Assembly: GCA_024403355.1 (NCBI GenBank)
Contig: JAKSRW010000012.1
Coordinates: forward strand, 16,797 to 80,796
From: Lachnospiraceae bacterium
GTDB lineage: Bacteria > Bacillota > Clostridia > Lachnospirales > Lachnospiraceae
Direction of reading: 5' to 3'
DNA length: 64,000 nucleotides
Shown here: positions 9,994 to 58,891 of the stretch, one piece after another
How the letters are laid out: every line of letters begins with the position of its first letter
Numbering within the stretch: the stretch's first letter is position 1
The notes under the pieces: model-generated
Told to the model about the DNA's origin: nothing
Seen by the model: only the letters and a program-made list of their open reading frames with translations
The model's database searches: none
Translations under genes and position numbers: made by a program

Positions 9994-10004
9994 GAAACCA
10001 CCTC

Positions 10005-12810: not shown

Positions 12811-12845
12811 CGGCCACATTTGTCCCGCAGGCTTAAATACATATT
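12811..12845 (-). terminator. intrinsic terminator downstream of the acid-tail gene cluster
   Basis: Stem AAGCCTGC…GCAGGCTT followed by a T-rich tract on the minus strand. Confidence 0.45.
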
Positions 12846-12968
12846 TTCTCTTACCCCATATCCTCCACACATTTTTCAAAATGTGCACATCCAATACACA
12901 GCTTCCTGCACTGCCGCTCATTCCGTCGCAGGTTCCATAGCCAAAACAGCAGCCTGTTCATCATTTAC

Positions 12969-13412: not shown

Positions 13413-13588
13413 CGCGCCGTGCGTACGTAGGGCTTAGTCGGTGCATGCTCTGCGCAGCGCACCTCCTTCTGGAAGAAGGCGCAGGTCATATAACCCTCAC
13501 AATGCTCCCTGTCTGCCAGAAGCTTAGTGCATCGATTGATATCCGCATCCAAAGTGCAGATGTACTCTTCAGAATCTCCCATACTCAA
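13376..13588 (-). CDS. small Cys/His-rich protein (70 aa)
   Basis: Overlaps both neighbours (ATGA coupling at 13585-13588). Motifs CTKLLADREHCEGY and CAEH resemble the C-x2-H-x-C units of the upstream gene. Confidence 0.45.
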   Translation of the reverse strand: MSMGDSEEYICTLDADINRCTKLLADREHCEGYMTCAFFQKEVRCAEHAPTKPYVRTARWYEVYYSKRRA

Positions 13589-14523
13589 TAGTTATCCTCC
13601 CAGTAATCAAAGGCCTCATCCCAGTCATCAAAATCATCGCCCCACTCATCTGCGAAATCATCAGCATCGTAATAATTGTGTACATCATATGGATCCGAAG
13701 CCCCTGTCACTTGGCCCGAGCTGCTGCCGCTACTGCCTGTCGAAGACGAATATGTCGTATTCTTATAAGAATATGGCTTACTTTTATAAACGGTCGGTCT
13801 CTTCCAAGGATTATCACGGTAGTCGCTTATATGGAAAACCACACCCTCTACAACATTCACTGCAAATATTATGTCCCTGTCCTTGTAATAGTAATATATG
13901 TCAGAACTCTTATACCCTTTGCCTGTACCTATATGATTCCCTCCGTAGAAATACGCCGTGCCCAGGCCGGTACTTGAAAGATATCTCTCCGACATACCCA
14001 CATACGGCAATTCAACAGATTCTCCCTCGCATTTGTGGGTATAGCAATAATTGCTTGAACCGATTTTAACATTTTTACAGTTCGTGAAAACGCAGGTATG
14101 GTCCACACAATACTCGCCCCCTTGAATTTCCAATTTATCACAATCATATTCCGAACATTGTTTCTCTGCCTCAGCACGCCTAGCACTTATTTGTTTTTGA
14201 ACTCCATGATGATATTCACACAATTGAAAATACTCATCGTAAACTTCGTCACGGCAAGCAAACGCACCACAAGTATGAGCAAAACAATACTTTCTATTTG
14301 TCAGCTGCATTTTCATGCATAACTTTCCCCCGGAATATTTACATCTTAAGCCAAAAAAATATACAAGAAATCCCACTACAATAGCAACACCTATTACCAC
14401 AAGTATAACGATAGTCTTTTTGGCATTCTTTTTATTAAATTTTATATTGTCTACAGCTATCCAGATACCAAAGGACAAAGCCATAACACTCAGTATAATT
14501 ATATATATTTTTGTTTCCAACAT
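13585..14523 (-). CDS. two-TM protein with repeated C-x2-H-x-C-x4-5-C-x10-11-C-x2-H units and the conserved aromatic-acidic C-terminal tail
   Basis: Motifs YCFAHTC…CEYHH and YCVDHTC…YCYTHKC. Tail DPYDVHNYYDADDFADEWGDDFDDWDEAFDYWEDNY. Confidence 0.65.
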   Translation of the reverse strand: MLETKIYIIILSVMALSFGIWIAVDNIKFNKKNAKKTIVILVVIGVAIVVGFLVYFFGLRCKYSGGKLCMKMQLTNRKYCFAHTCGAFACRDEVYDEYFQLCEYHHGVQKQISARRAEAEKQCSEYDCDKLEIQGGEYCVDHTCVFTNCKNVKIGSSNYCYTHKCEGESVELPYVGMSERYLSSTGLGTAYFYGGNHIGTGKGYKSSDIYYYYKDRDIIFAVNVVEGVVFHISDYRDNPWKRPTVYKSKPYSYKNTTYSSSTGSSGSSSGQVTGASDPYDVHNYYDADDFADEWGDDFDDWDEAFDYWEDNY

Positions 14524-14690
14524 ATTAGTTGCACAATCCTTTCCAAATACGATATTTCATCATCCAACAGAACTCCGCAGCAACTTAAAAATCATAATCG
14601 TCAGAATCCTGACTCGCGTCCTCTACAGCAGAATATCCTCTTCCTACATCAGAGCTGTCCGGTCATCAGAATTTCCTCCTCATATTATTT

Positions 14691-14939
14691 TTATTTAGAC
14701 TCATAATTCTGATACTTATAACAATCCCAGCAATATATCACGTCACTTCTCCAACAGTTATCCCCACAGCAAATACATTTTTTCTCATCCTTACCATTCT
14801 GCTTCTTTTTCAGATCAACAAATACATTTTTACTTCTGTTAACAGTCATATTAATCATATTTTTCCTCCACAAATACATTTTCCAGTTTCTTAAACTATA
14901 CTCACCTAAGAATTCTCTTGTAATCCTCCCGATATTCAA
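14691..14939 (-). CDS. small Cys-rich protein; the true start may be an internal Met
   Basis: Motif CICCGDNCW…YCWDCY. Confidence 0.3.
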   Translation of the reverse strand: MNIGRITREFLGEYSLRNWKMYLWRKNMINMTVNRSKNVFVDLKKKQNGKDEKKCICCGDNCWRSDVIYCWDCYKYQNYESK

Positions 14940-15249
14940 ATGATAACATGATACAAGGGAGTTTTATCGGACTCTGAGAAACATTTAAAGAACATTTTAT
15001 AACTTCTATGTCGCCACTAAGCCGTCCTCCGCTGCGATGCCATTGTCATTATTACCACCAGCAGGTCATCTATCGGGCCCGGGCAGGCATCAATAGGTGA
15101 TATAACATATAAAATAGCTAATACAAGTAACATACCTTTCATTCCATTCTTCATAACGATTTCCTCCTGGTAAATAATTTTCTTTTTCGTTTTAGATTAT
15201 AGCGAATACTTCATAACCCTTTTTGCAAATAAACTGTAATAATTTTGAA

Positions 15250-15405
15250 TCAGTAGCCATAGCCACGTACTTGCTTACGCGTGTCAGCCTTTAACTCATT
15301 TCTGGACGGACGAGTGGCAAGCTTGTGATCCATAGTTCCCATTTTAATGTTAATCATAACTCTGTAGCGTTTAGCACACTGCTTCTTCATATTCTTCTCA
15401 AGCAT
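15250..15405 (-). CDS. 51-aa basic protein of unknown function
   Basis: Strong RBS GGAGGAAATTACA-ATG. Sequence MLEKNMKKQCAKRYRVMINIKMG… Not in the ORF track because it is under 60 aa. Confidence 0.3.
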   Translation of the reverse strand: MLEKNMKKQCAKRYRVMINIKMGTMDHKLATRPSRNELKADTRKQVRGYGY

Positions 15406-15888
15406 TGTAATTTCCTCCGTTTAGTTTGAACTTTTAACTTTGTCAACAAATAATGGTTTCATCGTTTCTTTTGTTGTTATGTAGCTATTATAAAGCAGAA
15501 TAAAAAAGCCTTTTCGTAAAAAAGTGTAAAAAAGAAAGCCTTTCCTAAAAACAGAAAAGGCTATTTTTCATAAAATATCAAATTGTGATTCGTTCAATGT
15601 CCTGGCGGGCTTCATCGGTTTTCTAGCCAAGCCCATCGCCTCCCAAACGGGCCTTTAGTAAACTTTTAAGCTCAGTAACGGCCTCTTCGCCGGAGTGATA
15701 CCTTCCGGTATCAACTAATCTATTCTCAAATTCATCAAACAAATCTGCCTGACTATCATAGTATAATTTCCTCAAAGCTGAACTACTTCTATAAAAGCCT
15801 GTAACAATCTACGTTTTTTTAACAGTTCCTGCCATTCTTTCATACGTAATGTCCTCCCTTTACTTGATCGATTTGCCACAATCCCCCC

Positions 15889-16818
15889 TCAATAATTATC
15901 CTCCCAGTAGTCAAAGGCATCATCCCAGCTGTCGAAATCGTCCTCCCATTCATCCGCGAAATCATCAGCACTGTAATAATTATGGACATCGTAAGGGTCC
16001 GCATAGAATGAATAACCCGAATAGCTATTTTTTTGTCCACCGGAGCTTCCGGATGAATTATTCTTATGCTTGTTATTATCTTCATCCAGCTTATATCTGT
16101 AGTCATTCGTAGAATAAACATAACCATACTTTGCATCCGCATGAAAAATCTGTTTTCCATCAACCACCCAGTCATAGGCCATATGCCTCCCGCCCCCTAT
16201 AATATCCATTTCTATCTTGGATTTGCTCGGTACTCCCAGTGAGCAAACATCAAAATATATCGTTTTCATACCAGCTCTGGGTAACTCGCCCGCATAGTGT
16301 TTTTCCTCACTGTAGAACCTGATATTCTCCGGATTCTTTTGTTTTAAAGCAATGACATGCGATTTAACTTCATAAAAAAAGTCCTGATACTTTCCTGAGT
16401 ATTCCCAGTTAAAATAGTGATCCACTATCTCAAATATGTCCCTGTAATTAACATTCTCTACAACTGTCTCGGAATATATAGAATCTAAAACTTTACTGTT
16501 ATCCTCCAAAAAGATATCCAACCAATAAAGGGCTTCGGCATCTTTATTCCCATATTTAGCCATTGTATCTAATTCTATTCTTTTATCGCACTCAAGATAT
16601 TCCCCTTTCTTAAGTGTATTATATGCTTCCTCGAGCTTATAATCGTCAGTGTTTATCCGGTAATAACGAACAGTTAATGCAATAATAACTATCAATACAA
16701 CCGCAGCAACCGCGATATAACACCTTATAATCTTACGCTTAGAAGCTGTTGTGCGTCCCTCTAAATTAAGCATTCCAAGCGAAATTACACCTATTATTCC
16801 CATTATTATTCCCGCCAT
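15889..16818 (-). CDS. two-TM membrane protein with the conserved aromatic-acidic C-terminal tail; third paralog
   Basis: Tail DPYDVHNYYSADDFADEWEDDFDSWDDAFDYWEDNY. The middle domain differs from the other two paralogs. Confidence 0.65.
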   Translation of the reverse strand: MAGIIMGIIGVISLGMLNLEGRTTASKRKIIRCYIAVAAVVLIVIIALTVRYYRINTDDYKLEEAYNTLKKGEYLECDKRIELDTMAKYGNKDAEALYWLDIFLEDNSKVLDSIYSETVVENVNYRDIFEIVDHYFNWEYSGKYQDFFYEVKSHVIALKQKNPENIRFYSEEKHYAGELPRAGMKTIYFDVCSLGVPSKSKIEMDIIGGGRHMAYDWVVDGKQIFHADAKYGYVYSTNDYRYKLDEDNNKHKNNSSGSSGGQKNSYSGYSFYADPYDVHNYYSADDFADEWEDDFDSWDDAFDYWEDNY

Positions 16819-46250: not shown

Positions 46251-46529
46251 TAGTTATTATTCTAACACTTGTTAAAGATATTGGCAATCCGCTTCGCCGC
46301 CTGCTCATATAAAAGCTGCACCTCGCTCTTTACAAGCTGTCAATCATAATTACCTCAAAAGCCGTATCAGTATTAGAAATCTAATTTGCCGTTTTCGAGG
46401 AATAAATACGCTTATTTTTGCTGCAAACCGCTATACAATCGTCATTTTATAGGCTATAATCTAATCACAGGCAGCAAAGAAAAGCCTGTCACACACAGTG
46501 CGTTAAGCACGGAAGGAGAGGTTATTTTT

Positions 46530-48023
46530 ATGAGTACGGGACAGATTATTTTAATCGCCGCAATCGTGGTAGCGGTACTAATCATCTTATTAACAGGTTA
46601 TGTTAAGGCACCGCCGGATGTTGCTTATATCATTTCAGGTATGAAGAAGAACCCCAAGATTCTCATTGGTCGTTCAGGCATCAAGGTTCCATTCTTTGAG
46701 CGAAAGGATAACCTGATTGTTAAGCAGATAAGTGTAGACATTAAAACAAACGGTTATGTACCTACTCTCGACTTCATCGGTGTAGATATCGATGCAGTTG
46801 CAAAAATCAGAGTGAAGACAGATCCCGACGGAATCAAGCTTGCTATGAAGAACTTCCTTAATATGAAGGAGGAGCAGATTATCACAGCTCTCACAGATTC
46901 CCTTCAGGGTAACATGCGTGAAATTATCGGTACTGTTAAGCTCAAGGAATTATGTACAGACCGTAAGAAGTTCGGTGATGAGGTTCAGGAGAAGGCCCAG
47001 AAGGATATGAACGCCCTGGGTATTGAAATCATCTCATGTAACATTCAGAGAATCGATGACGAGAAGGGTCTTATCGTTGCCCTCGGTCAGGACAATATGT
47101 CACAGATTCAGAAGGATGCTTCTATCGCAAAGGCTCAGGCTGAGCGAGATGTTGCAATCGCAGAGGCAGAGGCTAGCAAGGCCGCAAATGAGGCCAGAGT
47201 TTTAGCCAACACCGATATCGCTATTAAGCAGAACGAATTAAAGATCAAGCAGGCTGAATTAAAGAAGGAATCAGACTTAAAGCAGGCTGAGGCCGATGCA
47301 GCCTACAAGATTCAGGAAGAGTCACAGCGTAAGATTATCGAGGCTACAGCCGTTGAGGCTGATATCGCCCGTCAGCAGAAGTCAGTTGAGCTCCGTAAGC
47401 AGGAAGCAGAGGTTAAGGAGCAGGAGCTTGCCGCTTCAATCAAGAAGCAGGCAGATGCCGACAGATACCGTCAGCAGCAGATGGCCGATGTAGAGCTTTA
47501 CCGTCGTCAGAAGGACGCTGAGGCCCGCAAGTTCGAGATGGAACGTGAGGCAGAGGCTATGCGTATCAAGGCCGATGCCGTTAAGTATCAGGCTGAGCAG
47601 GATGCAGAAGCTATCCGTGCAAGAGGTGTCGCTGAGGCAGAGGCTATCCGTGCAAAGGGTATCGCTGAAGCAGAAGCTACCGAAAAGAAGGCAGAGGCTA
47701 TGTCAAAGATGAAGGAAGCCGCAGTCCTTGAAATGTTCTTCAAGGTACTTCCCGAAATCGCTGCAAACGTTGCAAAGCCTCTCGAGAACATCGACAAGAT
47801 TACAATGTACGGCGAAGGCAATACAGCAAAGCTTATTGAGGATATCACAAAGTCCACAACCCAGATTTCTACCGGTCTTACCGAGGGTCTCGGCTTCGAC
47901 TTAAAGAGCATGCTCGCAGGTGCACTCGGCGGAAAGGTAGTCGGTGATGCAGTTAAGAATGCAGTAAAGTCTGAGGATAAGGATACTTTCACAGAGACTG
48001 CTGCCACAGAAGCTGCAGAATAA
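46530..48023 (+). CDS. flotillin-like SPFH protein (FloT/YuaG family)
   Basis: N-terminal TM, SPFH domain and an EA-rich coiled coil (AEAEAIRAKGIAEAEA). Start moved to MSTGQ, where RBS GGAAGGAGAGG is present. Confidence 0.78.
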   Translation: MSTGQIILIAAIVVAVLIILLTGYVKAPPDVAYIISGMKKNPKILIGRSGIKVPFFERKDNLIVKQISVDIKTNGYVPTLDFIGVDIDAVAKIRVKTDPDGIKLAMKNFLNMKEEQIITALTDSLQGNMREIIGTVKLKELCTDRKKFGDEVQEKAQKDMNALGIEIISCNIQRIDDEKGLIVALGQDNMSQIQKDASIAKAQAERDVAIAEAEASKAANEARVLANTDIAIKQNELKIKQAELKKESDLKQAEADAAYKIQEESQRKIIEATAVEADIARQQKSVELRKQEAEVKEQELAASIKKQADADRYRQQQMADVELYRRQKDAEARKFEMEREAEAMRIKADAVKYQAEQDAEAIRARGVAEAEAIRAKGIAEAEATEKKAEAMSKMKEAAVLEMFFKVLPEIAANVAKPLENIDKITMYGEGNTAKLIEDITKSTTQISTGLTEGLGFDLKSMLAGALGGKVVGDAVKNAVKSEDKDTFTETAATEAAE

Positions 48024-48166
48024 AATAAGCTAATCAAAAGCCCCGGGATTTATCAGACTAATGGAATGATTAATTCCGGGGCTTTTATACCCTATCCTCC
48101 AAGATAATAAAAAGCGATCTGACTCACGCCAAATCGCTTTTAGAATTCCTCTGTCAAATTTTCTTT

Positions 48167-49081
48167 TTAGTTGATTTTAGTCGATTCGACCTGATGTGCC
48201 AGCAGCTTATCAGCCAATGCTTCAAACTTCTCCTGATCTGCTGCCGCAGACGCATTAATAATCAATTGCGACAAAATGTTTTCATCATTAACTGACTTAA
48301 TACGTTCTGTCAGACTGTCTGATATGGTAAAACGGGTGTTAATCACCTGTAATGCAAGATTGTTTTGTCCAATCTGCACACCCTTCTGTATACCTTCCTG
48401 CATGCCATTATTAAATTCTTTTTTCATCATTTCCTCGAACAGCATGTACCTCTCCTCCATATCACGACTGGTTTTCACCTTTTTCACAGAATTCTGCAGC
48501 TGCCTTACAAAACTGTCACCATAGTCTTCCTCGCTGGCTTCAGGTCCTGCAGCTACATACCTTAAGAATTTAACAAGTGCCTCTGGCACCTCGTTTTCAT
48601 TGGTTCCTACCGTACTCAGAAACACCGTATGCCTTCCGTCAGAGTAGGAAATTTTCTCGTCTTCCGCGACATACTGGCTGATGGTGTATCTGTACTTTTT
48701 CAGTTTTAACGGATCATAATCACAAATAAAGAGAACATAACTGTCCGGAAGCTTCTCATAGTCTTGTCCGGAAAGAAGCATTTCCATGTCCATATGGCTG
48801 TGATAATACCTGGCTCGCTTACTAACAGGCTGTGCATCCGCCTGCATCTCCACATTGAAGTGTGTTCCCGCCGTATCCTTAAGAAATACATCAAGCCTTA
48901 CACCCTTGTACTCCGGGTTATAGACAATGCTTTTCTCATACGAGATATCAACGTGATCCACCTTTACTCCAAGTGCAAGCTCAAGCAGGCCCTTGGCATT
49001 CTCCGGTTCAAGCATCACCGCTGCGAACATGAAATTGTTCTTTATCGTGAGATCCTTAAGTCTTTTTCTATGGTATTCCAA
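48167..49081 (-). CDS. Rpn/YhgA-like PD-(D/E)XK recombination-promoting nuclease / putative transposase
   Basis: N-terminal …DLTIKNNFMFAAVM… and …DVFLKD…NVEMQ… motifs typical of the family. Confidence 0.65.
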   Translation of the reverse strand: MEYHRKRLKDLTIKNNFMFAAVMLEPENAKGLLELALGVKVDHVDISYEKSIVYNPEYKGVRLDVFLKDTAGTHFNVEMQADAQPVSKRARYYHSHMDMEMLLSGQDYEKLPDSYVLFICDYDPLKLKKYRYTISQYVAEDEKISYSDGRHTVFLSTVGTNENEVPEALVKFLRYVAAGPEASEEDYGDSFVRQLQNSVKKVKTSRDMEERYMLFEEMMKKEFNNGMQEGIQKGVQIGQNNLALQVINTRFTISDSLTERIKSVNDENILSQLIINASAAADQEKFEALADKLLAHQVESTKIN

Positions 49082-49360
49082 TAAATCCCTCCTTTTTGCA
49101 GAGGAATTCTAAAATTATTATACACTTAGGAATACTATTCAGTCAAGCGTAAATGAAAACATTTTCGTTTTTACGTAATCTTTATAAATTCAAGAAAAAA
49201 TCACAACCACCCTTCCAAAGGGTGGTTTGTACTTGGGCTATAAGCCCTTGCTACTAGGCCAGCGTCTCAAGGCGCTGGCTTTTGATTCGTCGCTACTCCT
49301 GAAGGGGTATTATTACTACTTCACATTAACCCTTAAAAGGGTCTTCATATTCTTTAACAC

Positions 49361-49564
49361 TCAATATTCCATAACAAGTTCAAAATCAGAATCTTCAAGA
49401 ACACAATCAAAAGAGGATCGGTGGCATGTGGGTATTTTTTTTGCAGAAACCGGATCATCAACATATTCGATACCATATTTGCAAAGGACTAGGCCCCAAT
49501 ATGCTTCTGCTTCTTCCGGAAAATCTGTAACAATGTTCTCATAAACACCAAATGCTTTGTCAAA
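49361..49564 (-). pseudogene. decayed fragment of a Zn-ribbon-TPR-TIR-LRR family gene (paralog of 54387-56810)
   Basis: Translation …EAEAYWGLVLCKYGIEYVDDPVSAKKIPTCHRSSFDCVLEDSDFE aligns with aa ~63-125 of the 807-aa protein. No start codon; upstream stop codons are present. Confidence 0.55.
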
Positions 49565-49783
49565 TTCACATGGTCAATTACTGTTCTTGGAGAACTTTAT
49601 ATTTATTGAAGATTAAGAAAAATATTAAACAAAGCAGCTAAGTTTTTACATCAATAAAAACCCTTACGAAAATACGCAGTGGCTTCATTAACAGTATTCC
49701 GTTGCCTAACATAATGTATAATCTGGTAAACGTCAAATTTCCTTTAAACTTCAGATAACAACTACAAACGCCAGTTTTTGTTC

Positions 49784-50320
49784 TCACTTTACCAGTAGCT
49801 TTCTCAGGTTATTTAAATCTGTTTGAGATAAAAGAACCCTTGCAGTTAAGTTTTTATTACTATTATAATCATCAAAAATCACATACTTTCGAGTTTTATC
49901 CAACAAGTACACATTGCTATGGGCTATTGAATTTCTTATATGGCGCAACAGACATACCAGTTCATCTTTTTCATCATTTTTGTAACAACAAACAAATCCC
50001 TTACTTTTTCGATTAACTGTATGATTAGCTTTTAATCTATATATATCTAACTGCTTTTCATTGATATTACCTGACTTATATATATAATAATTACCTTGTT
50101 TTATGGCAATCTTTGCTATAAATTCTTTCCATATTGTACTCACACCCCTTGCAGGAATAGACTTTGCACTCTTACTGTCCACTGTAGGAGCTAAATGTAA
50201 ATAAAAACTAAACAAAGATTTCATTTTTTCATCTACTATTTCGAAAGGAGCTATTCGATTTTTTAAAATATCACTAATTTCCATTTTTCTCATTTCTTGT
50301 TTGTAAATAATAGACCACAA
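49784..50320 (-). CDS. HEPN-like protein (putative RNase or Abi component)
   Basis: R-x4-H motif (LRHIRNSIAHSNVY) near the C-terminus. The true start may be MRKMEISD or MEISD. Confidence 0.45.
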   Translation of the reverse strand: MWSIIYKQEMRKMEISDILKNRIAPFEIVDEKMKSLFSFYLHLAPTVDSKSAKSIPARGVSTIWKEFIAKIAIKQGNYYIYKSGNINEKQLDIYRLKANHTVNRKSKGFVCCYKNDEKDELVCLLRHIRNSIAHSNVYLLDKTRKYVIFDDYNSNKNLTARVLLSQTDLNNLRKLLVK

Positions 50321-50347
50321 GTTTCAACTGCTTAATTAAAATACGCC

Positions 50348-50500
50348 TTATTGTTTCAGCATTTTCTCTACACCCTTCTTCCTTTGATGATGTAACTTAT
50401 GAAATGTCATTGTACAGCCGCAATATTCACAGATTCCAAGAGTTTTATCTTCAAATAACTCTATACCTCCACCAAACATTTTGCATTTTAAGATTGCCAT
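50348..50500 (-). CDS. 50-aa zinc-ribbon peptide; N-terminal gene fragment of the Zn-ribbon-TPR-TIR family
   Basis: MAILKCKMFGGGIELFEDKTLGICEYCGCTMTF…; compare MAILKCKMCGGTLEINSDETISTCEYCG in the 807-aa protein. Weak RBS. Confidence 0.35.
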   Translation of the reverse strand: MAILKCKMFGGGIELFEDKTLGICEYCGCTMTFHKLHHQRKKGVEKMLKQ

Positions 50501-50612
50501 TGTATCATACTTCACAATTACAGTATCATTCCAATACAGATTGTTTTATTTTTTTAATCGCAAGCATTCGTAATATTATTAAAAATCATAATTTATCCTT
50601 TTCCCAATCAGT

Positions 50613-50747
50613 CTCACACCTTCAAATATCCCTTCGGATTACGGCTTGTAAATGTCATTGTACAGCCACAATATTCACAGGTCCCAAGAGTTTTATCTTC
50701 AGATAACTCTATATCTCCACCACACATTTTGCATTTTAAGATTGCCA
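50613..50747 (-). CDS. 44-aa zinc-ribbon peptide; second N-terminal fragment of the same family
   Basis: MAILKCKMCGGDIELSEDKTLGTCEYCGCTMTF… RBS GGGAGA. Confidence 0.35.
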
Positions 50748-50792
50748 TTTTTTTATTCTCCCTGTATAATCTGTATTCCCCTTACTCCAAAG

Positions 50793-51563
50793 CTAAATAT
50801 CCCAAATAACGTTTTTATTCAACTCACTTAATCTTCCGGTTTCGACACCCTCTGTATACAACGGAGAGCGAATCAATCTATCTTTTCGCATTCTATTTAA
50901 ATATTTGTCAGGTAATGTTATTCTAATACTTGTTAGTTTTTCATTTTGGGCTATTTTATTTATTTCGTCTGATAATCTAAGCACTAATCTGGATTCGACC
51001 TCGTATGACCATGCATAATTTTTACAAAAAATATCATCATGGACCAGTATTGGGGGATTCACAGTAGCATGATCATTTCTAACAGTTATTTTTGCTTTAT
51101 TTTTACATAAATCAACATATAGTACATCTGTCATAAACAAATCAAACGAACCATCTGTTTTTTTTAACTTATATTTTTTATCAAACTGACCATTCCCATC
51201 AAATAGCCCCAGTTCAACTGTATCTATATCCAGAATACTTTTTATCACAGAAGGTAAAAAATCAATTACAGCGCCCTTTTTACCATGTTCTCCGCTATAA
51301 AGCATCCACATAGCAATATTCTCTTTAGTTGAACATGAAAAGCTATGACCATAGACCTTTTTTTCATTCATACTAATTCGGTCCTCTTTATCATTCCATT
51401 TTTGCCCATCACTTAAATAGATTTTTCCTGTAAGCAAGAATGCAAGAGCCCTTTCCATAGAGGTATACACTTTATAGTTTTGATGAAGTCCTCCATTAAA
51501 ACGTAATGCTTTAGCTAAACTATTACTATCAGAAATATTATTTTTCAGTAATTTTATTCCCAT
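50793..51563 (-). CDS. DUF2971-like protein
   Basis: Motif …GHSFSCSTKENIAMWMLYSGEHGKKGAVIDF matches the SFS…N..MW..Y…HKG hallmark recalled for DUF2971. Confidence 0.5.
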   Translation of the reverse strand: MGIKLLKNNISDSNSLAKALRFNGGLHQNYKVYTSMERALAFLLTGKIYLSDGQKWNDKEDRISMNEKKVYGHSFSCSTKENIAMWMLYSGEHGKKGAVIDFLPSVIKSILDIDTVELGLFDGNGQFDKKYKLKKTDGSFDLFMTDVLYVDLCKNKAKITVRNDHATVNPPILVHDDIFCKNYAWSYEVESRLVLRLSDEINKIAQNEKLTSIRITLPDKYLNRMRKDRLIRSPLYTEGVETGRLSELNKNVIWDI

Positions 51564-51626
51564 ATAACCAAACTATTTCCTAACACTAATTTAATCATTT
51601 TAAACACTTAATTCCCTAATCAAACT

Positions 51627-52322
51627 CTACTTACTCACCTTACAAACTCGATTTCTCTCAGCAAGCATTCCCTTAAGGTCCCTGCACAGAGCAGTTATTT
51701 TTTCCGGATGTCCAGCCGCAACTGCTGCCTGCATTTCATTTGCAACCGCCATCATATCTCGTTCAATTTCTTCTGTTGCTTCATTTGATACAGGATCGCT
51801 GTATCTGAATTCCTCTGCAAGAGCATCCAAATTCTTTTTAACCGCTGAATCCTCGCACGTGCTTGCAACTGATGAAATAACAGACCGCAGATCTCTCATT
51901 ACTGATACATCTTTCTTAAGTTTTATGTCCTGTTTTTCTACCTCATCGCGCATAGTTTCCGCCGTAATACATCCAATAGCCGCCGCACCGAGAATAATAA
52001 TATTTAATACTATAATTATCCAATTAGGAAATGCTGATACAAAAGTTGAAAGAAGCATTCCTGCAAGACTGACCGCAAGCTGTACTACCAGATAAATAAA
52101 TCCTATTTTCGCAATCGGAAATCCATAGAATCTGCTTTTGGCATCCTCGTCTCTGAAAGCAACCCTGAATACATAAAGCTGCATCAAAACAGCTATCACT
52201 CCGAATATATATGAGCACCAAAATCCCGAATTTTTGCTAAATGGTACCACAAATGCTATTACAGAAAAAATCACAATAATTATTGCCAGAATCGCAAATC
52301 CCCTATTTCTGTTTTTGTTCAT
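51627..52322 (-). CDS. four-TM membrane protein with a cytoplasmic helical C-terminal domain; partner of the SPFH protein
   Basis: Start lies 4 nt from the stop of the upstream SPFH gene. Confidence 0.6.
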   Translation of the reverse strand: MNKNRNRGFAILAIIIVIFSVIAFVVPFSKNSGFWCSYIFGVIAVLMQLYVFRVAFRDEDAKSRFYGFPIAKIGFIYLVVQLAVSLAGMLLSTFVSAFPNWIIIVLNIIILGAAAIGCITAETMRDEVEKQDIKLKKDVSVMRDLRSVISSVASTCEDSAVKKNLDALAEEFRYSDPVSNEATEEIERDMMAVANEMQAAVAAGHPEKITALCRDLKGMLAERNRVCKVSK

Positions 52323-52326
52323 AGGC

Positions 52327-54201
52327 TTATTCTCCTCTCTTTGCTCCGCAATTACTGCAGAAATTGCCTGTTATACCACTTTGTCCGCATGCACAATTCC
52401 AGGTATCAGATACAACCGGCATCGGTCTTTTCGCCCCACAGTTATTACAGAAATTTCCGATTACACCGGTCTGTCCACAACTACAATCCCAGGTATCCGT
52501 CTGTACAAGCATTGGTTTCTTTGCCCCGCAATTATTACAGAAATTACCAATTATTCCTTTATGACCGCAGGCACAATCCCAAGCTTCTGCCATATTTTGT
52601 GGCTGAACCGGATTTGTAATATACGCAGGTACACTCATCTGCTGATTATTTCCCTGCCCCATATTTCCAAAATTATTCATCATCTGACCAATCTGAGGTG
52701 AAATAGCAGATGCTGCTGCCAGTCCGACTCCAAGGCCCATCATATCTCCAACAATACTGCTTCCACCGCCAGCAGAAATAGCAGGCCCCATATTTCCTAT
52801 ACCCTCTGCATAAGCCTTCTGAACCTCTGCAGTGAGTACATCCTTCTGGCTATATCCTTTCGCAGCCATGATTTCAGCTTCGGTAAGTCCCTGCATACGT
52901 GCTGCCTGCGCTTCTGCCTGTGCCTCAATTACACGGCGTTCCGCTTCTCTTTTTGCAATCTCGGTTTCTGTAGTCTGCTGTTCAAGAACGGCTGCACGAT
53001 GTGCTGCTTCAATCGCTGCTTTGCTCTGTTCTTCTGCAGTTCTGTAGATAGTCTCCGACTGAGCCTTTGCAGTTCTGACTGTAGCCTCAGCCTGCAGCAT
53101 TCTTGTTTGAAGTGTAATTGTATGTAATTCCTTAATCCTCTTAAAGTTAGGGTCATCTTCAGGAAGAACTATATTTGTAACATAGAATTGCGGTATAGTA
53201 AGTCCGTATTCCTCAAAACCGGGAATCAACTTCTCACGAAGATTTGTGGATATTATGTCCAGTTTTGAATCTATCTCTAATAAATCGATAGCTTCATTTG
53301 TTATCACTGATGAAAGATTAGTTTTTAATGTACTTGATATTAATGGTCTAAAAGAGTTCTGAATTGATTTTGTTAACCCCGGGCCTTCTTCCCAGGCTAT
53401 TCCCTTTGTTGTACCAACAAGCTTTATTAATAATTTTCTCGAATTACTTACTTGAAGATTCAATTCTCCTGAAGCGCCTATTTGAAGAGGCGTTCCCGTC
53501 AGAGGATCTATGAATCTGACCTTGTCCGGTGTTCCCCACTTAATCGCCATCTGAACAGTTTTATTGATGAAATATACTTCAGAATGGAAGGTCCCTTCTG
53601 TGTCCGTAGGAAGCTGATACGTCTTTTCTAATAAAGGCAACTGCTGTGTTTCGAGAGTATAACGACCCGGGCCGAATAAATCGAGAGCCTGTCCGTCCTT
53701 AAAGAAAATCGCTTCCTGACTCTCATGAACAATAAGCTGAGACCCATAGTTGAAATCTTCAATAGGATGCTTCCAAATAAATGTATTATTATCACCCTCA
53801 TATTTTATGACACTCGCCAGTCCATCCCTTTTAATCTTTTCAGATGTAAGTCTTTCCTGTACATCATTCATATAATCACACACCGGGCAAACATAGGTAG
53901 ACGCACTTCTTGTAGTCATTAATCTAACGCCGCACTGTGCACATGAAAATTCTTCAACTTTCTGTTGTTCAGCCATTGTATTTATCTTTCCATTACAAAT
54001 GGGACATACGGCATCAGCACCTTTTGTCTGATCAAACACAACCTGATTTCCACAATGTGGACATTCTCTTGATGCCAATTTATCTGTACGGATATTAATT
54101 ACATTTCCGCAGGAACAATCAATTTTTTTCTTTGCAAAAAAACCTGTTTTTGCCTCTGCATATTTTCCACAAACAGGGCATTCAATAGCAAACTTAGCCA
54201 T
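52327..54201 (-). CDS. SPFH/band-7-like protein flanked by multiple zinc ribbons
   Basis: Three to four N-terminal CxxC…CxxC ribbons, a central SPFH-like domain, and three tandem C-terminal W-x-C-x-CG…GNFC-x-NCGAK ribbons. Confidence 0.65.
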   Translation of the reverse strand: MAKFAIECPVCGKYAEAKTGFFAKKKIDCSCGNVINIRTDKLASRECPHCGNQVVFDQTKGADAVCPICNGKINTMAEQQKVEEFSCAQCGVRLMTTRSASTYVCPVCDYMNDVQERLTSEKIKRDGLASVIKYEGDNNTFIWKHPIEDFNYGSQLIVHESQEAIFFKDGQALDLFGPGRYTLETQQLPLLEKTYQLPTDTEGTFHSEVYFINKTVQMAIKWGTPDKVRFIDPLTGTPLQIGASGELNLQVSNSRKLLIKLVGTTKGIAWEEGPGLTKSIQNSFRPLISSTLKTNLSSVITNEAIDLLEIDSKLDIISTNLREKLIPGFEEYGLTIPQFYVTNIVLPEDDPNFKRIKELHTITLQTRMLQAEATVRTAKAQSETIYRTAEEQSKAAIEAAHRAAVLEQQTTETEIAKREAERRVIEAQAEAQAARMQGLTEAEIMAAKGYSQKDVLTAEVQKAYAEGIGNMGPAISAGGGSSIVGDMMGLGVGLAAASAISPQIGQMMNNFGNMGQGNNQQMSVPAYITNPVQPQNMAEAWDCACGHKGIIGNFCNNCGAKKPMLVQTDTWDCSCGQTGVIGNFCNNCGAKRPMPVVSDTWNCACGQSGITGNFCSNCGAKRGE

Positions 54202-54386
54202 ACCGTAGGCCTCCCTTATATTTTAGTAATTTCCATATGCTCAAATACAAATTCTATACTCATCACTAGAATTTCATTTCGTGTTCTTTCTGTTTTTTTA
54301 TTCACAACATCAATGTCTGCCAGCATATTCTTTTGCATTCTCATTTTCTTTATATGGTAACAGCATACTTAAAATTTTAACCATAA

Positions 54387-56810
54387 TTAATAGTCTTTTT
54401 TTACTCTACAAAACGAACATTTTTTAATTATTAACCCCTTAAATGCAGCCCCACAATACTGGCAACGACCATTATTTCGATACTCTTTCATACGATCCAA
54501 TTTATTTTGTTGCTCTTGAAATCTTTTTTCTTCTTCTTTCTGTTGCTCTTGACGTATTTTTTCTTCTTCTTTCTGTTGCTCTTGACGTATTTTTTCTTCT
54601 TTTTTTCTTTGTTCTATAATCGACTTTTCCGACCAGGTAATTATCTCAGCTTTTTCAACACCCATATCTTTCTTTGCTATATTTTTTAACTTGTCAGGAA
54701 TAATAATTTGCGTCAAACTGCTACAGCCGCTAAATGCCCATCTGCCAATACTTGTTACACTATTCGGTATTTCGATTTGCGTCAAATTACTACACCTGCT
54801 AAATGCACTTTCTCCAATACTAGTTACACTATTCGGTATTTCAATTTGTGTCAGACTGCTGCAATCTGAAAATGCACTATCACCAATACTTATGACACTG
54901 TTGGGTATTTCAATTTGTGTCAAATTACTGCAGTTATAAAATGCACTATCACCAATACTTGTGACACTGTTGGGTATTTTTATTTGTGTCAAATTACTGC
55001 AGTTATAAAATGCACTATCACCAATACTTGTGACACTGTTGGGTATTGCAAATTCACTTATATCTCCATTAAAAGGAAAAAATGTATGTAGAATAGTTAA
55101 ATCATCGTTATATAATACTCCCCTATCTAACTTATAATATTTGTTTCCATCAGGAATTATAATCTGTGTCAAATTACTGCAGTTACTAAATGCACCTTCG
55201 CCAATAAATGTAACACTATTCGGTATTTCTATTTGTGTCAGACCGCTGCATTCTAAAAATGCCCAATCACCAATACTTGTAATACTGTTTGGTATTTCTA
55301 TTTGTCTCAAGCTACTGCATTCCGAAAATGCCCAACCACCAATACTTGTGACACTGTTTGGTATTTCTATTTGTGTCAGACTACTGCATTCTGTAAATGC
55401 ACAATCACCAATACTTGTGACACTGTTGGGTATTTTTATTTGTATCAAATTACTGCATTTATAAAATGCATATTCTCCAATACTTGTAACACTATTCGGA
55501 ATCTTGAATACAGATAACTCTGAGGCATCTGAATGAATATCAATTCTTTGCAATTTACCATTTACAATCCTAAAAATATCAGCAAAATCCCGTCGAAAAT
55601 TATTATTTATTTTAGTTTGAACATCTTTGTGCGCATATTTCATTACCTTACTGTAATTTTTAGTTTTAGTAATATCTTCCTTAAGTCCAAACTCAACATC
55701 AAAACTTTTAATTTTACATTCGACCATCAATTTAGCTACATACGCATCCCCACATTCCGGATTAATATCAAGAACACGCTCTGCATATTCCTCTGCAGAA
55801 TCCCATTCTTCATCCTCAATGAACATGAACGCACGTTTTAAAAGTGGTGCAACATTTGAGACAGACATATTATTCTGCTGTACATCATTTCCATTATCTG
55901 CTGTTTTACCCTCATCCTTTTTTATAACCTTTTTAATTCCCCGTAAAATATCATTAATAAATCCTATTTTCGACATATCCTGCGCCTGCAAATGCGCAAA
56001 TTCTTCCGGGAGTTCATATGCGTCCATATCCTTATAGCAAGGGATTAGCAGTTTACTGCGATCATTCTTCATAAGTTTCATAAAGCGTGACCATTCGTTC
56101 TTTACCCATACAGCACTAAAGTATTCCGGCTTTGAACCGATAGAAATCATTACCTTTGAACTATTGATTGCAGCGAATATATAGGGCTCATACTCCTGAC
56201 CAAGCTTGTCCTCCAAAGTAATCGCAGCATAGAAAACCTTAAAGCCTTCCTGTGTGAGCTGATGATATATGTCATTAGCTAAAACACTGTCAAATGTACG
56301 ATTACCATTTTCATCAGTTTCCTTGTAACTGATGAAAACATCATAAGGTTCTTCATTCTGGGAAATAGCAAGGATTCCCTTTTGTATCTCATCTATGGCC
56401 TTTGCTTCTGTCTCATAAATAGTTTTCTGTCCGATATCCGCATATTTTATCGCAAACCTATAATCCTCATCAGCAGTTATCGCATCAAAAGAAGACCTAT
56501 GGCAGGTTGGAACACGCTTGAGTGTTTTAGGGTCTTCAACATATTCAATACCATATTTACAGAGAATTATTCCCCAATATGCTTCTGCCTGTGTATTGTC
56601 AATTTCAATTATTTTGCTATAAATTTCTTCAGCTTTGTCAAACTCCGACTTCATACGAAGTGTATTTGCACGATTGAAAAGATTCCCGAGGATATCGTCT
56701 GTAATTTTCGGAATCGTCTGTTCTGTACCACAGTACTCACATGTCGAAATAGTTTCGTCTGAATTAATTTCTAATGTACCGCCACACATTTTACATTTTA
56801 ATATTGCCAT
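54387..56810 (-). CDS. Zn-ribbon-TPR-TIR-LRR(BspA-type) protein with a C-terminal coiled coil and zinc ribbon
   Basis: TIR signature YDVFISYKETDENG…KVMISIGSKPEYFSAVWVKNEWSRF. About twelve 23-aa IPNSVTSIGxxAFxxCSxLTQIE repeats. Tandem repeats EEKIRQEQQKE. Terminal CQYCG…CSFC. Confidence 0.8.
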   Translation of the reverse strand: MAILKCKMCGGTLEINSDETISTCEYCGTEQTIPKITDDILGNLFNRANTLRMKSEFDKAEEIYSKIIEIDNTQAEAYWGIILCKYGIEYVEDPKTLKRVPTCHRSSFDAITADEDYRFAIKYADIGQKTIYETEAKAIDEIQKGILAISQNEEPYDVFISYKETDENGNRTFDSVLANDIYHQLTQEGFKVFYAAITLEDKLGQEYEPYIFAAINSSKVMISIGSKPEYFSAVWVKNEWSRFMKLMKNDRSKLLIPCYKDMDAYELPEEFAHLQAQDMSKIGFINDILRGIKKVIKKDEGKTADNGNDVQQNNMSVSNVAPLLKRAFMFIEDEEWDSAEEYAERVLDINPECGDAYVAKLMVECKIKSFDVEFGLKEDITKTKNYSKVMKYAHKDVQTKINNNFRRDFADIFRIVNGKLQRIDIHSDASELSVFKIPNSVTSIGEYAFYKCSNLIQIKIPNSVTSIGDCAFTECSSLTQIEIPNSVTSIGGWAFSECSSLRQIEIPNSITSIGDWAFLECSGLTQIEIPNSVTFIGEGAFSNCSNLTQIIIPDGNKYYKLDRGVLYNDDLTILHTFFPFNGDISEFAIPNSVTSIGDSAFYNCSNLTQIKIPNSVTSIGDSAFYNCSNLTQIEIPNSVISIGDSAFSDCSSLTQIEIPNSVTSIGESAFSRCSNLTQIEIPNSVTSIGRWAFSGCSSLTQIIIPDKLKNIAKKDMGVEKAEIITWSEKSIIEQRKKEEKIRQEQQKEEEKIRQEQQKEEEKRFQEQQNKLDRMKEYRNNGRCQYCGAAFKGLIIKKCSFCRVKKDY

Positions 56811-57019
56811 TGAATCACATCCTCCATTTATTTTGTAACAACAGACTGCTAATTTCTCATTTCAATTGCTCTAAATCCCCATTTTTACCTATGTACGGGT
56901 AATATATTATAATAATACTTTATTTTTTCTTCCAAATCAACCATGTGTGGGTAATTTTTGCTTTTTCATCTGTTATCATTAGTGTATGATTTACTACTAT
57001 TTCATCCAGAGGTGACAGA

Positions 57020-57271
57020 GTGAAATATTCTGAATTATATGCCTTCAGAATTAAGCAATTATGCACGAAGAAGGGCATTACGATAAACCGATTAGCAACA
57101 TATTCGAATGTTAAACAATCTACCATAGACAATATAGTTCACGGGGCGAGCAAAAATCCAAAAGTTCGTACCTTACATAAAATAGCAACCGTTTTTGATA
57201 TGACATTAAGTGAATTCCTTGATTTTCAGGAGTTGAATGACTATTCCATTGATGACGAGGAAGAAGATTAA
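57020..57271 (+). CDS. XRE-family HTH transcriptional regulator
   Basis: …GITINRLATYSNVKQSTIDNIV… HTH. Terminator hairpin at 57277-57325. Confidence 0.75.
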   Translation: MKYSELYAFRIKQLCTKKGITINRLATYSNVKQSTIDNIVHGASKNPKVRTLHKIATVFDMTLSEFLDFQELNDYSIDDEEED

Positions 57272-57471
57272 CAGGGTATATGAAAATGAACCGAACATTT
57301 TCATATACCCTGTTTTTTTTATTCTCTTTTTCAAAAAATTAACAATCTATTTACAAATTTGGAACGCATTTGGAACGCTTTGGGGCCCGTGAGGGAACAG
57401 AGAACGAGTATATTTATTGCAGCAGGCAGACAAATAGCGCCTGAAAAAATATCATTTTGGAGGCATTTATT

Positions 57472-57798
57472 ATGTACTTTGATTCAATCGCAAAAATCGT
57501 TTCTGAACGTACAGGCTGTGACGTTTCTTCTATAAAGCCCGAGAGCAAGTTCTCAGAGCTTGGCATCGATTCACTCGACACCGTAGAGCTTCTTATGAAC
57601 CTCGAGGACGAAATCGGCATCGAAATCGAGCTGGAGGAAGAGCCTGTAAACACTCTTACTCTCTCCCGCTACCGCAAGGTCGCTCTTCGATTAAAGAGTA
57701 CCCTCGAGGAATACTCCCAGCTCTTCCAGGGCAGTTACCTGACAAATTACAGCTGGGGCGAGACCACTCTGGGCGGACTGCTCAGCAACCAGAAATAA
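57472..57798 (+). CDS. acyl-carrier-protein-like protein with an atypical C-terminal extension
   Basis: Phosphopantetheine-site context LGIDSLDTVELLMNLEDEIGIEIE. RBS GGAGG. Confidence 0.4.
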   Translation: MYFDSIAKIVSERTGCDVSSIKPESKFSELGIDSLDTVELLMNLEDEIGIEIELEEEPVNTLTLSRYRKVALRLKSTLEEYSQLFQGSYLTNYSWGETTLGGLLSNQK

Positions 57799-57896
57799 AT
57801 GGTCTCTTGGGGACGGGGTTGTTGGTGGTCCCCAAGAGACCACCAACAGCCCCCGCCCCCCAAGAGACCACCAACAACCCAATAAAGGAAAAGAAA

Positions 57897-57950
57897 AAAC
57901 AAGCCGATTGAAGCTTGCCGTTAATGGCAGACCTCAATCGGCCTTTATTT
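57897..57950. terminator. bidirectional intrinsic terminator between the ACP-like gene (+) and rsmA (-)
   Basis: Stem GCCGATTGA…TCAATCGGC flanked by A-runs and T-runs on both sides. Confidence 0.55.
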
Positions 57951-57955
57951 ATGAG

Positions 57956-58891
57956 CTACTGACCCCGTCCCCAAGAGTCCAAAAGGTAGTCGGCGAGCTT
58001 CGCGAATTCCTCGAGTCCGAGGGCCTCGCCGCGCACGGTTGCGCTGAGTCCAACATCTACGATGGCCTGCCCCACCAGCTCCTTAGGAAAGCTCAGCTCA
58101 GCTGAGTTCGAAATGCCGTTCTGAAGCGTTTTTCTGCGCTGGTTAAAGGCGGCACGGATAAGCTTAAACATCAGCTCCGGTGACTTGACCTGCACAGGCG
58201 GCTCAGGGCGCCTTGTAAGGCGGATAACGCATGAACCCACATTAGGACGCGGCATAAAGCAGTTAGGGGGCACATTGGCCGCAATATAGGCCTCAGAGTA
58301 GTACTGCACCGCCATAGACAGGGCACCGTAATCCTTCGTGCCGGGGCCCGCCTGCATACGCTCGGCCACCTCCTTCTGCACCATCACCGTGATACTGTCC
58401 ACCGGCAGCTGCTTCTCCAACAGTGCCATAACAATCGGAGTAGTTATATAGTAAGGCAGATTCGCCACGACCTTTATGGGCCGGCCGCCGTTCTTCTCCT
58501 CCACAATTTTTTTAATATCAACCTTCAGAATGTCCTCATTGATAATCTCGACATTATCGTAATCCTTCAGCGTGTCCTCGCGAAGAATCGGGATAAGTGC
58601 CTTGTCGATTTCCACCGCCACAACCTGACGTGCGTTTTCGCAAAGATACTGGGTAAGCGTACCTATTCCGGGGCCTATTTCCAGTACTAAATCATCCTTC
58701 GTAATACCCGCAGAATGAATTATTTTCTCCAGAACGTGCGTATCAATCAGGAAATTCTGGCCGAACTTCTTCTGAAATGTAAAATCATATTTATTTAAAA
58801 TTGCAATCGTATTTTTAGGATCTCCAAGTGTCGCCATTCGTATTTCCTTATCTTCTGTATAAATCTTTTTTTGCCGCTTCCAAGTCTTCAT
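57956..58891 (-). CDS. rsmA: 16S rRNA (adenine1518/1519-N6)-dimethyltransferase
   Basis: KsgA motifs QNFLID…EIGPGIGTLT. The start may be the internal Met 17 codons in (MATLGD…). Confidence 0.85.
   Translation of the reverse strand: MKTWKRQKKIYTEDKEIRMATLGDPKNTIAILNKYDFTFQKKFGQNFLIDTHVLEKIIHSAGITKDDLVLEIGPGIGTLTQYLCENARQVVAVEIDKALIPILREDTLKDYDNVEIINEDILKVDIKKIVEEKNGGRPIKVVANLPYYITTPIVMALLEKQLPVDSITVMVQKEVAERMQAGPGTKDYGALSMAVQYYSEAYIAANVPPNCFMPRPNVGSCVIRLTRRPEPPVQVKSPELMFKLIRAAFNQRRKTLQNGISNSAELSFPKELVGQAIVDVGLSATVRGEALGLEEFAKLADYLLDSWGRGQ

Follow-up and report, generated by a model that had tools for sequence, protein, structure and literature searches.

Which proteins does a bacterial SPFH protein serve when its gene runs almost directly into that of a small membrane protein? 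The question is raised by two minus-strand genes in a 64,000-nucleotide stretch of DNA from a Lachnospiraceae bacterium (hereafter the window). The first, at 52327-54201 (an open reading frame, or ORF), encodes a protein of 624 amino acids in which an SPFH domain lies between zinc ribbons; the second, at 51627-52322, encodes a partner of 231 amino acids with four transmembrane helices (4TM). Both ORFs were found exactly where they had first been placed. A preliminary description of the locus had seen in this pair a possible membrane scaffold or pore, perhaps an effector of neighboring TIR and HEPN genes. Our comparison of related loci points to a third, recurrent component, a family of proteins that share a head composed of a zinc ribbon (ZnR) and TPR repeats, and most of which are TIR proteins. 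Whether the pair serves as a sub-membrane platform for these ZnR-TPR-headed sensors, the whole being a candidate anti-phage system, is in our judgment an even call on the sequence evidence assembled below.

Relatives of the SPFH gene were gathered from one genome per species, yielding 270 confirmed relatives; the 80 loci that were kept belong to Lachnospiraceae, Oscillospiraceae, Ruminococcus and relatives, with SPFH identities of 47-79%. For the neighborhood comparison, ORFs were called in 85 loci and compared both with the window proteins and with one another by all-against-all clustering. Only four families were conserved over these loci, all on the same strand: SPFH (81 loci), 4TM (71 loci), TIR (110 genes, spread over 69 loci) and the small ORF (26 loci by clustering, 38 by BLAST). 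Because the next commonest family reaches only 8 loci, the flanks are unrelated from one locus to the next. A 4TM gene lies directly downstream of 65 of the 80 distinct SPFH genes; among the remainder, six have one within approximately 2 kb, usually with a TIR-family gene between, and five reach the end of the contig. TIR paralogs, numbering one to five per locus and always on the same strand, were found in 66 of 84 loci and in every one of the 32 loci with full flanks, that is, with at least 6 kb on both sides. The association is reciprocal: when the first 403 residues of the window TIR protein were used as the query, an SPFH gene was present in 24, and a 4TM gene in 20, of the 35 metagenome loci that span 6 kb or more. 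Among them are variants from termite guts whose SPFH protein is short and lacks the N-terminal ribbons.

The smallest clusters have the order SPFH-4TM-TIR or TIR-SPFH-4TM, and the window has the order TIR-(small ORF)-SPFH-4TM. Loci in which no 4TM gene was detected (L024, L069, L070 and L072) have the order TIR-TIR-SPFH and include Ruminococcus flavefaciens MC2020 and Ruminococcus sp. YRD2003. Cultured carriers of the cluster are Eubacterium xylanophilum ATCC 35991, Ruminococcus flavefaciens MC2020 and YAD2003, and Pseudoflavonifractor capillosus An827. In gut and rumen Clostridia, the SPFH/4TM pair and the TIR proteins almost always form one gene cluster, and the link to TIR neighbors that was first proposed for this locus is thereby borne out. 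The companion proposal, a link to HEPN, fared less well; small HEPN genes (RNxxAH motif) are embedded in only seven distinct loci and are occasional passengers or accessories of the cluster.

The TIR paralogs share a head of 370-400 residues with a common order: an N-terminal zinc ribbon, TPR, TIR_2 and a second TPR-like stretch. This head is approximately 50-65% identical in most paralogs. Beyond it the C-termini diverge, and total lengths range from 300 to 1700 residues. RCC1 and DUF6273 were each found in the C-termini of 33 of 100 paralogs, and TPR, BspA-type leucine-rich repeats (LRR) and ankyrin repeats also occur. A catalytic-type glutamate, E239 within AVWVKNEWSR of the window protein, is kept in 102 of 106 paralogs and aligns with the glutamate of WCLMEL in the flax L6 TIR; we take it to be the catalytic residue of TIR NADases. 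About 40% of the distinct paralogs (45 of 109) contain one strong transmembrane helix after the TIR-TPR part, the distribution of hydrophobicity being cleanly bimodal, and at least one such protein is encoded in 36 of 69 loci. Lysine and arginine are enriched before this helix (6.4 per 15 positions, vs 2.0 after it), which would place the TIR domain inside the cell and the variable part outside. Wherever a paralog with the helix also carries DUF6273 or RCC1, that domain lies after the helix (25 of 25). The window TIR-LRR protein has no transmembrane segment and thus represents a soluble member of the family.

Several further features of these paralogs were recorded. Paralogs with the helix are encoded at L009:9905-12895, L035:5725-8958, L014:2902-5853, L020:13182-16061 and about 40 other places; ectodomains consist of TPR plus DUF6273 or RCC1 and reach 1078 residues, a conserved 'vIIPxxKYNxA' motif follows the helix immediately, and some members are tail-anchored, with only 2-42 residues beyond it. 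The 3' end of the window TIR-LRR gene (54387-54700) encodes tandem EEKIRQEQQK repeats, which form a charged coiled coil, and then a zinc ribbon (CQYC...CSFC); a C-terminal zinc ribbon is found in only 5 of the 109 paralogs. DUF6273 has been described as a ligand-binding domain that is diversified in prophage proteins, including those of Faecalibacterium prophages (PMC11792537). We considered the DUF6273 paralogs as targets of diversity-generating retroelements and rejected this idea, as no adenine-biased pair of template and variable repeats was present in any locus.

The ZnR-TPR head also occurs in clusters that contain no TIR gene. These TIR-less triads encode a Band_7_1-ZnR protein (388-394 residues), a 4TM homolog (223-224 residues) and a ZnR-TPR-coiled-coil protein (463-486 residues), and were found on the Butyrivibrio fibrisolvens plasmid pNP21 (L166, 6700-10053) and in metagenomic loci (L171-L174, 4140-7461; L169-L170). 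The third gene of the pNP21 triad encodes a ZnR-TPR-coiled-coil protein of 464 residues whose head is homologous to that of the window TIR protein (E=8e-10), and relatives of this protein reside in the same triad everywhere examined. The pNP21 4TM homolog looks truncated; it has YSDP and ARNKKC, the latter being the counterpart of ERNRxC in the window partner. One group of triads lies on an integrase/TnpV/DUF6076 element that is inserted at different chromosomal sites. Its SPFH protein is 38% identical to that of the window (E=3e-94), and its 224-residue protein aligns with the partner profile with an hhalign probability of 100% (E=1e-41). Since the TIR-less triads hold homologs of all three parts, it is the ZnR-TPR head, rather than the TIR domain, that travels with the pair. 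The conserved unit is therefore the SPFH protein, the 4TM protein and one or more ZnR-TPR-headed proteins, in which the head is followed either by TIR and a sensor domain or by a coiled coil.

In the metagenomic loci L169-L174 a further gene, encoding 172-196 residues and unassigned in function, follows the triad. Among assemblies from the human gut, one protein cluster recurred in over 70 sample blocks. An analogous triad stands among housekeeping genes in Bacteroides finegoldii 'plasmid 5' (L167, 5944-8555); it comprises an SPFH protein whose C-terminus is GYF-like, a 4TM protein of 251 residues whose tail is helical, and a ZnR-TPR protein of 192 residues. We did not accept it as a homologous triad: the hhalign probability for the 4TM protein is 0.2, and the head matches in the ribbon only.

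What kind of SPFH protein stands at the center of this unit? Pfam PF13421 (Band_7_1) matches residues 149-349 at 129.5 bits (E=1.7e-37; cut-off, 24 bits), and PF01145 (Band_7) also clears its threshold, with 26.2 bits where 23.6 are required, so that the SPFH-like character first proposed for the central domain is supported at the level of profiles. The N-terminal ribbons, put at three or four in the preliminary description, number exactly three (C8/C11 with C29/C31, C47/C50 with C66/C69, and C87/C90 with C105/C108), and all 12 cysteines are invariant across alignment A2, which comprises 27 SPFH homologs of 70-82% identity. The three tandem C-terminal ribbons of the pattern W-x-C-x-CG...GNFC-x-NCGAK are present as described; their copy number is 3-5 in A2 and 0-5 by a strict regular expression over 81 SPFH genes, and the N-terminal ribbons are missing from 12 of these 81. 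An identical protein is already in the NCBI database as 'SPFH domain-containing protein' from a Lachnospiraceae metagenome-assembled genome, and more than 100 full-length homologs at 68-82% identity were among the 8000 scored candidates listed. Because full-length homologs at 47-82% identity occur in 80 species-level genomes, the architecture is real, far beyond chance. It had been called unusual; these searches show it to be no rarity but the norm within a large family of Clostridia, and the succession of SPFH domain, linker and ribbon is the known design of YdjI/SamI (COG4260).

No transmembrane segment was detected in the SPFH protein by Kyte-Doolittle analysis at a threshold of 1.6, and there is no N-terminal transmembrane helix or hairpin, the N-terminus consisting of the three zinc ribbons. 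The protein is moderately hydrophobic only at a conserved Gly/Ala/Met stretch (481-505; maximum 1.54 at 481-502) within the linker, where a glycine-zipper-like motif, GDMxGLGVGxAAA, could act as a membrane-contact element. A motif of this type (G-x-G-L-G-x-G/A...) is also found in distant Butyrivibrio and Bacteroides homologs (the SPFH genes of L166 and L167), and is retained even where a GYF-like domain replaces the zinc ribbons. The coiled-coil part shows weak similarity to the coiled coils of erlin and flotillin. The Flot domain (PF15975) has no match in the SPFH protein; it does match a neighboring protein encoded at 46386-48023, a flotillin that hhalign aligns with the SPFH protein in the coiled coil only. 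These comparisons assign the SPFH protein to the Band_7_1 branch, with the YdjI/SamI design, and not to the flotillins.

The partner was modeled with AlphaFold2 (AF2) at a predicted local distance difference test score (pLDDT) of 85.8, with four transmembrane helices, a cytoplasmic four-helix bundle, and both termini inside. SRFYGFP, YSDP and ERNRxC are invariant motifs of the family, and the cytoplasmic bundle carries invariant or near-invariant K136, K137, R143, R223, R225 and K231 together with the YSDP loop. As first described, the protein has a helical cytoplasmic tail and is not an NfeD protein: PF01957 has no match, there is no OB-fold, and the tail is all-helical in the AF2 model (pLDDT 86). 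Searches of Pfam, NCBIfam and PADLOC returned no match to it, and the family comprises 3463 clusters at 50% identity, nearly all of them stand-alone proteins of approximately 230 residues. The 4-nucleotide spacing noted at the outset was found at the junction with the SPFH gene (TAA-GCCT-ATG), and a GGAGA Shine-Dalgarno-like motif lies within the 3' end of the SPFH gene; because of this short gap and the motif inside the upstream gene, translational coupling of the two genes is plausible.

We take YdjI (SamI) of Bacillus subtilis to be a member of the same Band_7_1 (COG4260) branch. Like YdjI, the window SPFH protein has no anchor of its own, a glycine-rich low-complexity linker and C-terminal ribbon structure, and co-encoded integral membrane proteins are needed (for YdjI) or expected (here) for recruitment to the membrane; in both cases one partner has N-terminal zinc ribbons, YdjG having two (PMC8581546, PMC11237479). 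YdjI/SamI has been characterized as a brake or organizer of the membrane partners that recruit it (PMC8581546, PMC11237479, bioRxiv 10.64898/2026.02.06.704340). The systems differ in that the protein studied here has three extra N-terminal ribbons and, in the window, three C-terminal ribbons rather than one; that there is no PspA, TPM-domain YdjH or NTF2-like YdjG, and the partner is a 4TM protein with a helical bundle; and that the cassette is mobile, lies in defense-type islands and always comes with proteins that bear the ZnR-TPR head, TIR proteins for the most part. Neither the precomputed Pfam lists nor the embedded genes include PspA or a TPM domain, no family beyond the four is conserved in the 85 loci, and a pspA/ydjG/ydjH-type operon was not seen. 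The pair also resembles SPFH-NfeD pairs (HflK/C-FtsH, QmcA-YbbJ, FloT-YuaF) in the tight coupling of an SPFH gene to a gene for a small membrane protein, and an oligomeric sub-membrane assembly that corrals membrane proteins would be expected of both. It differs from them in that the SPFH protein lacks a transmembrane helix or hairpin and the partner has an all-helical tail in place of the NfeD OB-fold.

From the domain content, gene coupling, reciprocal co-occurrence, topology signals, catalytic motif and defense-island content that were observed, we infer physical docking, ring formation, a trigger and an output as follows. Together the two genes would make up the conserved core of a membrane-associated cassette with three parts. 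The soluble SPFH protein would assemble into a ring, by analogy with other SPFH proteins, and the 4TM protein would tether it beneath the membrane on the cytoplasmic side, much as SamG and SamH do for YdjI/SamI in Bacillus subtilis. The ZnR-TPR head would dock on this platform, a role suggested by its always accompanying the pair, with or without TIR. A phage- or envelope-derived cue would then bind the variable domain, outside or inside the cell, and alter the clustering of TIR domains on or in the SPFH platform, leading to NAD+ cleavage and a halt of the infected cell. The 4TM protein may contribute a membrane effect, and the small ribbon-helix-helix (RHH) protein encoded in the cluster would regulate the operon. 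A scaffold or platform of this kind accounts for the evidence no less well than the pore or effector role considered initially. In the most novel version of the model, enzymatic TIR receptors would form arrays on a 4TM-tethered SPFH ring, on which their ZnR-TPR heads dock and which gates TIR clustering and hence NAD+ cleavage; many of these receptors would cross the membrane once and expose RCC1 or DUF6273 outside the cell. This version is tentative, and we regard it as possible but doubtful.

Receptor-like organization has parallels elsewhere. Like Toll-like receptors, 45 of the 109 paralogs are predicted to cross the membrane once, their TIR domain lying in the cytoplasm and a repeat-rich ectodomain outside. 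The orientation is inverted, however, TIR being at the N-terminus and the ectodomain at the C-terminus; RCC1, DUF6273 or TPR takes the place that LRR has in Toll-like receptors, the window member is soluble, and the catalytic glutamate is kept, suggesting an enzyme rather than an adaptor. The nearest conceptual parallel is that of plant HIR proteins, SPFH proteins that are reported to associate with the LRR-type immune receptors FLS2 and the NLR RPS2 and with membrane cell death (PMC13534476, citing Qi et al. 2011). The parallel is one of analogy only, as the plant evidence is physical whereas ours is genomic, and the homology does not extend beyond the SPFH superfamily.

A number of results weigh against the platform model. 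The TIR-less triads show that the pair can work without a TIR protein, so that TIR may not be the sole or main output. When the 624-residue protein was modeled with 27 close homologs, the overall pLDDT was 53.8 and residues 126-284 fell below 50; the predicted beta strands followed by a long helix (351-436) are compatible with the SPFH core pattern, within what is a poor model. Sequence and profile searches of the PDB with the SPFH protein gave no significant relative. Because the SPFH core is poorly modeled and has no significant PDB relative, ring formation is offered by analogy only. Neither gene of the pair has a meaningful match in PADLOC, NCBIfam or PHROGs, and 4 of the 80 loci have room for a 4TM gene but none that could be detected. 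We also dropped the idea that C-terminal ribbons and TIR genes match in number, as the two counts do not go together (Spearman rho=-0.23, p=0.2). Known anti-phage systems seldom have sensor domains outside the cell, and the unrelated defense genes interleaved with the core genes could mean that the cluster is a mere insertion hotspot.

Could the TIR proteins instead make an ADP-ribose-derived signal, with the pair acting as a shared signal-binding, membrane-damaging effector, as in Thoeris systems? This reading comes closest to the pore or effector role considered initially, and the layout invites it. One conserved non-TIR module beside one to five divergent, catalytic-glutamate TIR genes in a defense-island setting is the classic arrangement of Thoeris (types I-XI); the conserved basic and polar residues of the 4TM bundle could form a ligand pocket, the pair is the sole obvious output candidate in the TIR-less triads, and new Thoeris types having transmembrane effectors with unknown domains have recently been validated (bioRxiv 10.64898/2025.12.03.692087). 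Yet neither protein contains a recognizable signal-binding domain of the SLOG, Macro, SAVED or SLATT type, and the TIR proteins are not small like ThsB; they are multi-domain receptors of 300-1700 residues with a docking-type ZnR-TPR head, repeat domains and often a transmembrane helix. The triads that keep the pair and the head without TIR also argue that a TIR product is no universal trigger. A 2025 survey of 29 types of TIR-signaling systems contains no mention of SPFH, Band_7, PF13421 or RCC1 in its text or supplements (nor of zinc in the supplements, nor of flotillin or stomatin in the main text). We consider a Thoeris-like mechanism unlikely.

The order of events could also be reversed, the pair sensing a perturbation of the membrane, as proposed for SamGHI, and releasing or activating the TIR effectors, while the variable domains only tune localization. 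Phage DNA injection, holins or envelope stress could be such perturbations. Among the cassette's components it is the pair that does not vary, and YdjI/SamI with SamGH has been viewed as a complex that senses or restrains membrane stress (PMC8581546; bioRxiv 10.64898/2026.02.06.704340). Such a scheme leaves the variable domains unexplained, as these are large, fast-diversifying and of a ligand-binding type, occur as several paralogs per locus and are in many cases extracellular; we judge it quite unlikely.

In a further alternative the cassette would serve not defense but the mobile element that carries it, through exclusion of competitors, addiction, or the sensing of extracellular cues from host or microbes. 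The triads on a plasmid and on the integrase/TnpV element would suit such a function, as would small serine recombinases, of approximately 200 residues, which adjoin the module at L001:220-828 and in five other loci; such recombinases have recently been proposed as markers of defense islands (PMC13552941). Extracellular RCC1 and DUF6273 would be appropriate for surface or environmental ligands, and DUF6273 is the ligand-binding domain diversified in prophage proteins (PMC11792537). On the other hand, the intact TIR glutamate, the paralog arrays and the interleaved Abi, SIR2 and HEPN genes are the signature of an anti-phage island. The cassette is, moreover, almost absent from phage collections: we rejected a phage-borne module after finding four weak partial matches in 50,697 phage records and one IMG/VR locus. 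A non-defense function for the mobile element therefore appears very unlikely.

The surroundings of the pair in the window record gene turnover. The features are collected in the table.

Features of the SPFH/4TM locus and its neighbors in the window, in order of position
Feature	Coordinates	Strand	Basis or remark
Canonical flotillin (Band_7 + Flot), 545-residue ORF	46386-48023	+	Pfam
PD-(D/E)XK 'transposase' family protein (PDDEXK_2, Rpn-like)	48167-49081	-	Edge of low-GC stretch
TIR-family TPR remnant (residues 56-123)	49364..49567	-	tblastn 54% identity, E=1.7e-20
HEPN protein, 178 residues, RNSIAH motif	49784..50320	-	Pfam pEK499_p136, E=1.8e-6
TIR-family ZnR-head remnant with Cys-to-Phe change	50393-50500	-	tblastn 56% identity, residues 1-36
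TIR-family ZnR-head remnant	50653-50748	-	tblastn 66% identity to TIR-LRR residues 1-32
DUF2971-like protein, 256 residues	50793..51563	-	Weak Pfam DUF2971; PADLOC PDC-S31, E=5.6e-6
Partner protein, 231 residues, predicted four transmembrane helices and cytoplasmic four-helix bundle	51627..52322	-	AF2
SPFH protein: three tandem C-terminal zinc ribbons, residues 541-624, and stop codon	52327..52581	-	W-x-C-x-C-G...GNFC-x-NCGAK
SPFH protein: Gly/Ala/Met-rich linker, residues 469-540	52582..52797	-	Conserved columns in A2
SPFH protein: predicted long helix / coiled coil, residues 351-468	52798..53151	-	AF2 helices 351-436, 441-447, 452-468
SPFH protein: Band_7_1 SPFH domain, residues 131-350	53152..53811	-	Pfam PF13421 and PF01145
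SPFH protein: three tandem 4-Cys zinc ribbons, residues 1-113	53863..54201	-	12 Cys invariant in A2
Small ORF, 42 residues	54216..54344	-	Short form of 63-67-residue RHH-like protein
ZnR-TPR-TIR-TPR-BspA-type LRR-coiled coil-ZnR protein, 807 residues	54387..56810	-	Pfam TIR_2, LRR_5, TPR

Downstream of the 4TM gene, the HEPN gene and the DUF2971-like gene are interleaved with decayed remnants of TIR genes, which suggests that both were inserted into former TIR paralogs. DUF2971-like genes are embedded in a few other loci too, and the one in the window is best regarded as an inserted accessory or an independent defense candidate outside the core. Among the genes embedded between core genes are AbiH (6), SIR2_2 (5), DUF2971/PDC-S31, HEPN, CAP12-type TIR, RES, ParE, AAA_21, HNH, LmuA/B, AriA, HEC-02 and PDC-S35. 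The module lies within a low-GC block (48001-58000; 0.33-0.41 against a background of 0.42-0.51, and 0.45-0.51 in its immediate surroundings); a second low-GC block of the window spans 8001-16000 (0.33-0.37). The flotillin gene is 4 kb from the module, so that two SPFH-superfamily genes occur within 8 kb, a pairing that is not conserved in other loci. Upstream, on the opposite strand, an XRE-type helix-turn-helix ORF (57020-57271, +) and an acyl-carrier-protein-like ORF with a DSLD motif (57457-57798, +) were recognized by eye from their translations.

The small ORF between the TIR and SPFH genes probably encodes, in its full-length form, an RHH-like transcriptional regulator of the operon. 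Its relatives of 63-67 residues usually head the cluster in other loci, and the window copy has an in-frame stop codon upstream. The match of the family to Pfam RHH_1 is weak and below the cut-off (E=0.023), and four of its five PDB profile matches are to RHH proteins or RHH-type antitoxins (EndoAI, CopG, Arc, 3h87), at likewise weak E values of 0.014-0.6. A scan for promoters and terminators was uninformative, promoter-like sites being no commoner than in shuffled sequence; a single promoter-like site was located upstream of the TIR gene (56906-56935).

That the pair is a housekeeping membrane organizer of the YdjI/flotillin type, to which TIR genes adjoin through an insertion hotspot for defense genes, is highly improbable. 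A shared Pfam family with YdjI, the many unrelated defense genes inserted in the cluster and the decayed TIR remnants of the window speak for it. Against it, the TIR association is reciprocal and holds in 32 of 32 loci with full flanks; all genes share one strand and lie close together, an arrangement also seen in the minimal SPFH-4TM-TIR loci; and the ZnR-TPR head accompanies the pair even where TIR is missing. The flanks are not conserved, the region has a low GC content, the cassette is carried on a plasmid and an integrative element, and no PspA or NfeD gene is present.

The platform model places two known elements, SPFH-partner pairs and TIR-based defense, in one conserved genomic context, and it is this context of the pair that is new. 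Our searches of the open-access literature on SPFH, Band-7 and COG4260 in connection with anti-phage defense or TIR found no description of the cassette, although such absence is not proof; the cassette looks like an undescribed membrane-based immune module, and one that as a candidate defense system goes undetected by PADLOC. SPFH proteins are universal membrane organizers whose bacterial clients are mostly unknown, and we know of no bacterial SPFH protein for which a link to immunity has been made. For the SPFH/4TM pair, which is very common in Clostridia, the conserved candidate clients are unambiguous: the ZnR-TPR-headed proteins, most of which are putative catalytic TIR sensors. The pair thus offers a directly testable system for the control of a signaling enzyme by an SPFH platform. 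The partner represents a large, unannotated family of membrane proteins with no Pfam model. Bacterial transmembrane TIR receptors, for their part, could sense extracellular cues, which is rare among known anti-phage systems. If TIR receptor arrays are indeed gated by the SPFH protein, they would constitute a bacterial counterpart of the nanodomains formed by plant HIR proteins and immune receptors, and would be the first defense role for a bacterial SPFH protein.

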